DNA of 64,000 bases from Escherichia coli (GTDB taxonomy: Bacteria; Pseudomonadota; Gammaproteobacteria; Enterobacterales; Enterobacteriaceae): assembly GCF_050320075.1 (NCBI RefSeq), contig NZ_CP190018.1; one strand, 5' to 3'. Both the position numbers and the translations under genes were made by a program. The notes beneath the pieces are model-generated. The model saw only the letters and a list, made by a program, of their open reading frames with translations, was not told the origin of the DNA and made no database searches. Below, piece by piece: positions 59,671 to 61,002 of this stretch; the first letter of the stretch is position 1; each line of letters begins with the position of its first letter.

Positions 59671-61002
59671 TTATTTTGAGTGAATTATCACCTTGTTTTT
59701 TCCGGTTCTTTTGGCTTGATATAACGCTTTGTCGGCATTGACTAACATTTCAGATGGACTGAGATTATTCTCTTTTGAAGCAAAGCAACCAATACTGACA
59801 GTTATTTTCTCAGGTCCATGCGATAATAATTTTTCCGAGCATTGCTCTTCAATGTTTTTTCTGATTCGCTCTGCAATTGATAGCAAGAGTTTTTGAGTAT
59901 TACCTTTAATGATAATACCGAACTCCTCACCGCCTAAGCGCCCTAATATATCCTCTTTCCTGATGGATTTTTTTATTATTCTGGTAACCATTACTATGAC
60001 TTGATCACCCATATGATGCCCCCATTTGTCATTGATGCTTTTGAAACTGTCAATATCTAACATTATTACTGAGAAATCATGGTGTTTTGATATATTCTTC
60101 AATGAGTCAATAAAGTATCTTCTATTGTATGTATTCGTTAGTGGATCATGAATTGCCATATGATTAGCATGATTTAATTTCCTGAAAACATAATACATGA
60201 GTGTTGAAATGATATAAATCATTGATATCAATTCAAGAAATTTTGTCATGTACCATGCAGGATGGGATTTATCAATAAAATACAATAAAATTAGATTATT
60301 GCATACTGACACTATACTAATAAGTATTATACACAACCATATTTTTGAGTAATTACGTATGCTGATGCATGAGCTGATAAGTAATACAAGCCAAAATACT
60401 GATATTATTTTGGTGTACACGATATTCCACGTCGACAAATGACGATTCAGCGAGTATTGTATAATATTAAGACTATATTTTATATGGTCACTGCTTAGAT
60501 TTTTTGCTACAAACGGAGTAATAAAAAGAATTAATATTGACAAAACAACAATTATTATGTTTCTTTTATCTTCTAAAATACTTTTATTTTTAACATTGGT
60601 GGAATAAACAGCCAGAAAGATTATAGATATAAAGCTGAACTGACGGAATAGATAATATATTGCGATATCATTTGATTTCTGATAGATTGTAGATAAATCG
60701 TTACCTAACGGAGATAAAGAAATAATAGCCACTTCTAATAAATAATACGTGTTGCTCAAAAACGCGAATGAAAGAATTAAGAGATAACTTTGTCTCTGAT
60801 TAGAAACATAGTAAAGCAATAGAAAAATAAAAATCATCAGGTTTATGAAAAAAAGCCCAATAATGAAAACACTATAACTTATTTGTGTTGTTTGTGTTAT
60901 GTATATTCCATTATTTTCATGCAGTAACAAAAATATAATAGAGATGCATGAAAATAAAAAGATGAAGATTTTTATTTTTATAGGTACCTGGTTGATAATC
61001 AT
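59671..61002 (-). CDS. Membrane-anchored diguanylate cyclase (GGDEF domain), AT-rich moron
   Basis: 443 aa; ~8 N-terminal TM helices; C-terminal GGDEF domain with RLGGEEF motif; ~30% GC. Confidence 0.8.
   Translation of the reverse strand: MIINQVPIKIKIFIFLFSCISIIFLLLHENNGIYITQTTQISYSVFIIGLFFINLMIFIFLLLYYVSNQRQSYLLILSFAFLSNTYYLLEVAIISLSPLGNDLSTIYQKSNDIAIYYLFRQFSFISIIFLAVYSTNVKNKSILEDKRNIIIVVLSILILFITPFVAKNLSSDHIKYSLNIIQYSLNRHLSTWNIVYTKIISVFWLVLLISSCISIRNYSKIWLCIILISIVSVCNNLILLYFIDKSHPAWYMTKFLELISMIYIISTLMYYVFRKLNHANHMAIHDPLTNTYNRRYFIDSLKNISKHHDFSVIMLDIDSFKSINDKWGHHMGDQVIVMVTRIIKKSIRKEDILGRLGGEEFGIIIKGNTQKLLLSIAERIRKNIEEQCSEKLLSHGPEKITVSIGCFASKENNLSPSEMLVNADKALYQAKRTGKNKVIIHSK

Follow-up and report, generated by a model that had tools for sequence, protein, structure and literature searches.

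The accessory diguanylate cyclase gene dgcX as very probable moron cargo of a lambdoid prophage at serU in Escherichia coli

We analysed a 64,000-nt stretch of the Escherichia coli contig NZ_CP190018.1 (assembly GCF_050320075.1), hereafter the window, with regard to a gene encoding a predicted membrane diguanylate cyclase close to the right end of a prophage. We identify it as dgcX, which encodes an accessory diguanylate cyclase of E. coli first reported from the O104:H4/enteroaggregative E. coli (EAEC) lineage, and which is already known rather than new. We are highly confident that dgcX is carried here as moron cargo of a lambdoid prophage integrated in serU, and that it makes a membrane cyclase of the MASE4-GGDEF type. 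Our analysis leaves the identity and role of the gene unchanged; what it adds is the status of dgcX as cargo, the ends of the cassette in which it lies, a wider prevalence than first surveyed, and a rare carrier at serU. In the O104:H4 lineage of the 2011 outbreak, DgcX has been proposed to increase cyclic di-GMP (c-di-GMP) as well as adherence and the production of matrix. The value of these additions lies in a clearer picture of the spread of a signalling enzyme that promotes biofilm formation in E. coli, and in a correction of the published description of its mobility.

The window holds a 47.9-kb lambdoid prophage integrated in serU, whose lambda-like head, tail, J, lom, and tail-fibre genes extend to 59122. 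dgcX lies within the attachment (att) repeats of this prophage, 592 nt from attR and 73 nt from a remnant of tfa on which it converges. From left to right, the features that frame it are:

13687-13776, plus strand: serU, tRNA-Ser(CGA), identified with ARAGORN
13715-13776, plus strand: attL, the last 62 nt of serU, a perfect direct repeat
13829-14854, minus strand: prophage tyrosine integrase adjoining attL, an intact open reading frame (ORF) of 341 aa with a Pfam Phage_integrase match
55389-59122, plus strand: tail-fibre module with an 801-aa fibre, a 93-aa ORF, and a 346-aa fibre with a Peptidase_S74 chaperone domain (ORFs, Pfam, and annotation of an identical locus)
59478-59597, plus strand: tfa remnant (last ~40 codons) and left cassette end (RefSeq annotation of an identical locus; the tfa 3' ends of phages mEp332 and ev099 match)
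59671-61002, minus strand: dgcX coding sequence, ATG start, 443 aa (ORF listing, Pfam, identity to 55989, and primer matches)
61253-61355, no strand assigned: conserved lambdoid segment and right cassette end (95% identical to HK97 20936-21039; limit of homology across four dgcX loci)
61356-61594, no strand assigned: phage-specific arm separating the cassette from the att core (the alignment departs from the lambda-attB loci)
61595-61656, plus strand: attR, a displaced copy of the 3' 62 nt of serU, forming a perfect 62-nt repeat with 13715-13776

An earlier note made from the letters of the window had described a minus-strand ORF of about 30% G+C between the tail-fibre genes and attR, and had read it as a prophage-borne moron in the equivalent of the lambda b region. 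The ORF was recovered exactly (443 aa, 29.7% G+C) and the location holds as well, with an AT-rich insert lying between tfa and a post-tfa segment inside the att repeats. The stretch at 61356-61594 may be the P arm of a serU-integrating phage, and it is unrelated to the lambda P arm that occupies the same place in EAEC strain 55989. In that strain, the 15-nt lambda core GCTTTTTTATACTAA occurs twice, once separating ybhC from int and once separating dgcX from ybhB, so that dgcX lies 641 nt inside attR, with a lambda-like P arm between the gene and the core. Because att repeats or cores enclose the gene in both genomes, dgcX is inside the prophage in the window and in 55989 alike, and judged by these positions it is true prophage cargo in both.

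This cargo status contradicts the published accounts, in which dgcX is either a chromosomal neighbour moved by specialised transduction or lies outside any mobile element; Richter et al. proposed that the gene “hitchhikes” by specialised transduction (PMC4287979). If dgcX were a chromosomal gene beside prophages that spread by aberrant excision, and not phage DNA at all, its 30% G+C, which differs from that of the phage backbone, would be accounted for, as would the finding that no sequenced phage carries it. However, the att positions largely refute this account. The gene lies between att repeats in both genomes at the distances given above, a phage-type att arm intervenes before the core is reached, and phage sequence is found on both sides, tfa on the left and the HK97-type post-tfa hairpin segment on the right. 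One and the same cassette also occurs beside two unrelated att modules and in a non-lambdoid prophage, which aberrant excision at a single site does not predict. We consider a chromosomal origin of this kind very improbable, and we treat dgcX as phage-borne cargo in what follows.

The limits of this cargo are well defined. When the serU, Rac (sitABCD/uspF), lambda-attB, and argW-dsdC loci were aligned, homology extended from window positions 59477-59503 to 61355-61359, and the left limit in all four was the last ~95-120 nt of tfa. A variant with 85% identity, found in a myovirus-type prophage near torT, has the same limits (59478-61355). The order within the cassette, from left to right, is the tfa 3' end, an AT-rich hairpin, dgcX, its promoter region, and the conserved hairpin segment. 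In HK97 that segment lies 124 nt on from tfa, between tfa and the annotated sib site plus att core, and it is also present in HK106, mEp460, and many Shiga toxin (Stx) phages. An empty site was found in the prophage pOHT76-1_1 (a record labelled as a plasmid), where tfa is followed by the hairpin segment within ~15 nt and dgcX is missing; in the window, 1.65 kb separates tfa from that segment. The foreign insert spans ~1.68 kb (59571-61250) and has a G+C content of 30.8%; the tail-fibre genes have 45.6% and the prophage has 50.6%.

Taking these limits together with the selection data given below, we believe it likely that dgcX forms a discrete moron cassette of ~1.9 kb that has been recombined among at least five prophage contexts and kept by purifying selection as its carriers decay. 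The five contexts are the serU-type and lambda-attB-type prophages, Rac, the argW island (CPS-53 site), and the myovirus-like prophage near torT, the last of which indicates that the cassette is not limited to lambdoid siphoviruses. Cargo with defined cassette ends explains why dgcX is found at several chromosomal sites. If this is true, DgcX and its relatives of 51-85% identity would represent a prophage-associated family of second-messenger “lifestyle” morons in about one-seventh of E. coli genomes.

The moron concept is reportedly due to Juhala, Hendrix, and colleagues, and examples in lambdoid phages are lambda lom and bor and the morons of HK97. As in those cases, dgcX is an extra gene of deviant base composition between elements that are adjacent in related phages, and it runs opposite to the late operon with hairpins on its flanks and a promoter-like region of its own. 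It differs in the nature of the cargo, an enzyme that makes a second messenger and has a membrane sensor domain rather than a surface or exclusion protein, and in its carriers, which are mostly degraded prophages; no free phage with dgcX is among the phage records discussed below.

The identification as dgcX is straightforward. The window protein and DgcX of 55989 are identical at 436 of 443 residues (98%) without a gap, and the substitutions, with the window residue first, are I142V, H173N, I194T, K245Q, S319N, A408T, and I440T. An identical protein is already public as a multispecies RefSeq entry, present on 397 contigs. The published DgcX of 55989/O104:H4 shares its length, start codon, MASE4-GGDEF layout, GGEEF motif, and RxxD motif with the window protein (PMC4287979, PMC10459773), and had been described with eight predicted membrane helices, an intact active site (A-site), an RxxD inhibitory site (I-site), and adjoining lambdoid prophage DNA (Richter et al. 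2014, PMC4287979). In 55989, too, the carrier is a lambdoid prophage, and the gene sits at its attR end and converges on tfa. The carriers are different, as the prophage of 55989 sits at lambda attB (ybhC/ybhB) rather than at serU, with another integrase/att module and another tail-fibre set. The remark in the earlier note that a similar cyclase had been described in EAEC at this attachment region was therefore right about the gene, given the 98% identity, and wrong about the site, since the published EAEC copies are at lambda attB. The junction from dgcX to ybhB in 55989 is 100% identical in several O104:H4 genomes.

Three of the four published dgcX primers (Table S3, PMC4287979) match the window at the expected positions: across the start codon (60990-61011), at -62, and at the stop codon (59673-59692, with two mismatches). 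The fourth, at -412, has no match in the window because it sits in the lambda-type att arm of the 55989 and GN4554 loci, beyond the cassette limit at about -355. The mutants E359A and E360A published by Cimdins-Ahne et al. 2023 (PMC10459773) agree with the numbering of GGEEF in the window protein.

In base composition, dgcX (29.7% G+C) stands apart from the window as a whole (49.8%) and from the prophage interior (50.6%), and the G+C profile falls to 27-29% across the gene. The product is an inner-membrane protein with two Pfam domains: MASE4, a sensor domain integral to the membrane, at residues 40-274 (E 1.8e-35), and a cytoplasmic GGDEF domain at residues 283-437 (E 3.2e-44) that covers the complete profile (1-161). 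A gene 1.3 kb long in 30%-G+C DNA with such domain scores is not a chance ORF. The generic GGDEF model of NCBIfam (TIGR) concurs with a full-length match, while none of the NCBIfam equivalog models attains its cut-off on the window protein. The A-site reads G-R-L-G-G-E-E-F, with GGEEF at 357-361, and the I-site RxxD is RKED at 348-351, leaving five residues between D351 and G357. Eight long helices (8-27, 40-67, 72-96, 103-134, 146-169, 194-214, 220-241, and 249-285) precede the GGDEF fold in an AlphaFold2 model derived from 18 family members (mean pLDDT, the predicted local distance difference test score, of 80). The earlier claims of about eight transmembrane helices and an intact GGDEF domain with the motif RLGGEEF are both in agreement with these results.

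To examine the active site, we aligned residues 271-439 of DgcX with PleD of Caulobacter (PDB 1W25; E 9e-25), comparing the PleD ligand set D327, K332, N335, D344, R366, K442, and R446. Conserved in DgcX are D316 and D318 (the metal-binding DID), K321, the guanine ligands N324 and D333, R355, and K431, together with GGEEF, the I-site residues R348 and D351, and the AERIR secondary-site motif; R446 of PleD corresponds to K435, a conservative change. The degenerate active site that the earlier note had named as grounds for rejecting its reading was not found, as the catalytic and I-site residues align with those of PleD. These positions are invariant or nearly so over the 18 family members, down to 31% identity, and R348 and D351 are invariant. 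DgcX thus shares its metal, guanine, and phosphate ligands, GGEEF, RxxD, and AERIR motif with PleD (PDB 1W25/2V0N), but PleD is soluble and activated by phosphorylation of its receiver domains, whereas DgcX has a membrane MASE4 input. As far as sequence can tell, the window protein has the features of an active, I-site-regulated GGDEF cyclase of the MASE4-GGDEF subfamily.

Selection on the gene points the same way. The ratio of nonsynonymous to synonymous substitution rates (dN/dS) is 0.16 against the argW-site allele (dS 0.19) and 0.13 against the 85% variant (dS 0.57), and GGEEF, RxxD, and a G+C content of ~30% are retained in every diverged dgcX allele that we compared. By these ratios, the dgcX family is under purifying selection.

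Two K-12 proteins share the eight-helix MASE4 plus GGDEF arrangement. DgcT (YcdT) is 37% identical to DgcX over 408 aa, with GGEEF and the I-site present, and CdgI (YeaI) is 38% identical over 426 aa. Both differ from DgcX in being encoded by core-genome genes at fixed loci, dgcT by pgaA and cdgI in yeaGH-cdgI-dgcJ, rather than by prophage cargo. The likeness to CdgI, a degenerate paralogue that binds c-di-GMP at its I-site, raises the question of whether DgcX could act mainly as a c-di-GMP receptor or scaffold and not as a synthase, given the MASE4 domain and 38% identity common to the two proteins and the intact I-site of DgcX. We find this extremely improbable: CdgI has RLEGEVF where DgcX has RLGGEEF, all of the catalytic residues are present in DgcX, and its GGEAF and GGAAF mutants lose the cellulose phenotype (PMC10459773). 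DgcX is better read as a synthase.

Near-identical alleles have been studied in published experiments. A single-copy lacZ fusion carrying the -412 to +18 region of the O104:H4 gene gave the highest expression of all E. coli diguanylate cyclase genes at both 28 and 37 C, and the reporter was transcribed by both the vegetative sigma-70 and the sigma-S (RpoS) polymerase (PMC4287979). Arabinose-driven DgcX switches on cellulose independently of CsgD, an effect lost in the A-site mutants (PMC10459773) and indirect evidence of c-di-GMP synthesis. Of the 353 nt upstream of dgcX in the window (61003-61355), 348 are identical to 55989, and only one of the five differences falls within 300 nt of the start codon. 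The distal ~57 nt of the published fragment belong to the lambda-type arm and are absent from the window. The candidate signals around the gene are:

61075-61103, minus strand: best sigma-70-like promoter match, TTGACA and TAGTAT with a 17-nt spacer, 10 of 12 consensus positions
61251-61297, minus strand (the dgcX strand): intrinsic-terminator-like hairpin upstream of the dgcX promoter match, with a 14-bp G+C-rich stem followed by UUUUCUUUAU
59606-59644, no strand assigned: AT-rich hairpin of 17 bp within the 73 nt that separate dgcX from the tfa remnant on which it converges

The promoter match falls inside the -412 to +18 fragment used in the published reporter (PMC4287979). From it, a 5' untranslated region of ~65-70 nt is predicted, with an AGGTG Shine-Dalgarno sequence 5 nt before the ATG. 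The hairpin at 61251-61297 has a folding energy of -24.8 kcal/mol (z -4.4 against shuffled sequences). It was also considered as an equivalent of lambda sib/tI and rejected, as the annotated sib of HK97 lies just past the matching segment; from this comparison, we class it as a conserved hairpin that follows tfa, with sib lying between it and the att core. The hairpin at 59606-59644 (-24.8 kcal/mol on the plus strand and -15.8 kcal/mol on the minus strand, z about -5.5) is probably a bidirectional terminator, with no clear U-run on the dgcX strand. A terminator scan found nothing at the dgcX locus, because one hairpin has a loop of more than 8 nt and the stem of the other has few G-C pairs. 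The two hairpins are related, in that the one at 59606-59644 matches 61261-61305 at 28 of 45 positions; in 127,912 window positions, no other match of this kind occurred except that of the hairpin to itself and to its palindromic reverse strand.

An Rfam scan of the cassette identified no c-di-GMP riboswitch, and the flanks gave sub-threshold matches only. On the left conserved phage flank, IS009 matched at 59456-59554 on the plus strand (69.8 bits, gathering threshold 117), and on the right flank, the Shigella small RNA CssrB matched at 61199-61294 on the plus strand (44.1 bits, gathering threshold 76). Both of these candidate small RNA families may have been defined on homologous prophage sequence.

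Based on these features, dgcX in a lysogen would use a promoter of its own and be expressed irrespective of phage late transcription, with the flanking hairpins acting as insulation. DgcX would dimerise in the membrane and condense two GTP into c-di-GMP, with an output limited by binding of the product at the I-site and perhaps tuned by a signal sensed through MASE4. The added c-di-GMP could shift the host towards matrix production (cellulose, and CsgD/curli in some backgrounds) and away from motility, and this would amount to a lysogenic conversion of lifestyle.

Several points weigh against reading dgcX as functional, phage-borne cargo in this strain. S319 of the window protein replaces N319 within the DIDxFK metal-binding motif, and the function of this seven-substitution allele is argued from near-identical published alleles. 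Promoter-like matches near dgcX are no commoner than in shuffled sequence in a consensus scan. Chromosomal deletion of dgcX in the commensal strain Fec101 changed the colony morphotype only slightly (PMC10459773), and in the published work on DgcX that we searched, no direct measurement of c-di-GMP for this protein was found. DNA and protein searches recovered dgcX in none of 50,697 phage genome records. Finally, the lambda-E-type major capsid gene of the prophage (39139-42871) is broken ~60 nt after its start by an IS66-family insertion element at ~39200-41894, with tnpC (39230-40801), tnpB (40821-41168), and tnpA (41168-41845) all on the minus strand and a target duplication of ~12 bp (39188-39199 and 41895-41906). 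With its capsid gene interrupted, the window prophage is probably unable to make heads, defective, and no longer mobile.

Some of these points would also fit a gene that is intact but inert in this strain, through H-NS-type silencing of its 29.7%-G+C sequence or through I-site feedback combined with the lack of a MASE4 signal; the minor morphotype effect in Fec101 and the decay of the carrier by IS66 would then be unsurprising. We think this unlikely. An upstream region that differs at only 5 of 353 positions gave the top reporter expression among cyclase genes at both temperatures, the dN/dS values of 0.13-0.16 and the retention of all catalytic residues in variants down to 51% identity speak for continued use of the protein, and 14% of complete genomes retain the gene, in many cases within a prophage that is badly degraded.

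The distribution of dgcX was surveyed in complete E. coli genomes, where it is present in 770 of 5,426 (14%) and far commoner than the original survey (9 of 61) suggested. The lambda-attB junction is present in 588 and the serU junction in 37 of the 5,426 genomes. Heavily degraded prophages often carry the gene, including many of those at lambda attB, and intact dgcX in decaying prophages, together with its low dN/dS, fits selection on the host. Plasmids do not carry dgcX in any of 72,556 records, where the matches were to cassette flanks or to unrelated GGDEF domains, and the GGDEF matches among the phage records were below 40% identity to DgcX and had no MASE4 domain. PHROGs detected only the GGDEF domain in DgcX, in families that are all of unknown function, and no PADLOC defence model matched DgcX or two small neighbouring ORFs.

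Full-length relatives of DgcX were found only in Escherichia and Citrobacter, in identity steps of 85, 83, 81, 67, 52, and 51%. The 85% variant (L008:6001-7332 and L009, from GCA_048046435.1 and GCA_036437595.1) adjoins tfa in a prophage with Baseplate_J and sheath initiator genes beside torT/torR. A 51% MASE4-GGDEF relative (L012:6001-7341, GCA_012699085.1; a cluster of 106) lies at a Rac prophage end, between uspF and ynaE/pin/tfa-remnant/stf, with two copies of the conserved hairpin segment nearby (L012:5088-5160 and 7629-7670). The 67% relative (L010:6001-7335, a Logan contig of SRR11949291, and L011) has GGEEF and RxxD intact and 30% G+C, and occupies a chromosomal locus without phage flanks, with nfrB-nfrA-ybcH homologues on one side and folD on the other. 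A c-di-GMP-binding MshEN domain is present in NfrB, and the nfrBA-ybcH operon encodes a c-di-GMP-activated glycosyltransferase needed for infection by phage N4. This relative could be a dedicated local cyclase, or a source or sink of the phage-borne gene.

The company that the gene keeps makes it worth considering that the phage itself is the main beneficiary. Here, c-di-GMP would alter the host surface or matrix (cellulose, poly-N-acetylglucosamine, curli, or flagella) or c-di-GMP-dependent receptors, and the resulting superinfection exclusion or change in the prophage's own host range would explain the fixed linkage to the tail-fibre genes and tfa. At all of the lambdoid and myovirus-type loci that we inspected, the cyclase gene, whether dgcX or the 85% variant, runs directly towards tfa or what is left of it, and the 67% relative adjoins nfrBA-ybcH. 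However, recombination at the conserved tfa and hairpin sequences explains the tfa linkage equally well, the defence search with PADLOC was negative, and the known phenotypes are biofilm traits of the host. A benefit mainly to the phage seems improbable to us.

The closest relatives of the carrier prophage also show how it has been modified. In strains MLI106K3 and E1 (NZ_CP117020.1 and NZ_CP115821.1), the same serU prophage with the same dgcX allele is found, and its capsid gene is split by an element of ~10.9 kb (L015:18847-30827, NZ_CP115821.1, and the same region of NZ_CP117020.1) inserted at the equivalent of window 42081-42090 with a 10-bp duplication. This element encodes an integrase, helix-turn-helix regulators, an Icd-like protein, a primase, a single-stranded DNA-binding protein, a major capsid protein, a head-decoration protein, a small terminase (pseudogene), and a DUF2971 protein, and it resembles a phage satellite, or an island similar to phage-inducible chromosomal islands, that integrates into the prophage capsid gene. 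NZ_CP117020.1 is the top match (100%) for window 59400-61700, but collinearity with it throughout the window was ruled out by the ORF listing and blastn, given the IS66 element in the window capsid gene. In the early region, the prophages of the window and of E1, otherwise 99% identical, differ in one block (window 22182-23853 and L015:496-3560); the window has ~1.7 kb of different sequence there, and the block of E1 carries an AbiH-family abortive-infection gene and a gene for a 463-aa hypothetical protein.

Other genes of the window prophage are worth recording. Between the last tail-fibre gene and the tfa remnant, a 102-aa ORF (59150-59458, plus strand) with predicted membrane helices matches phrog_1443, a family of unknown function, and has no Pfam or PADLOC match; this ORF may represent further small cargo carried at that end of the prophage. 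Two phage-borne tRNA genes on the plus strand lie downstream of the gene for the antiterminator, one with a CAT anticodon at 27333-27408 and a tRNA-Arg(TCT) at 27513-27589, a pairing typical of Stx-phage-like lambdoids. The former is a tRNA-Met according to ARAGORN, and its equivalent in the serU prophages of NZ_CP117020.1 and NZ_CP115821.1 is annotated as tRNA-Ile in RefSeq. Lastly, the gene for the 801-aa tail fibre contains a 189-nt tandem duplication (55890-56267, 85% identity) encoding Ala/Ser-rich “KTSETNAK...” repeats.

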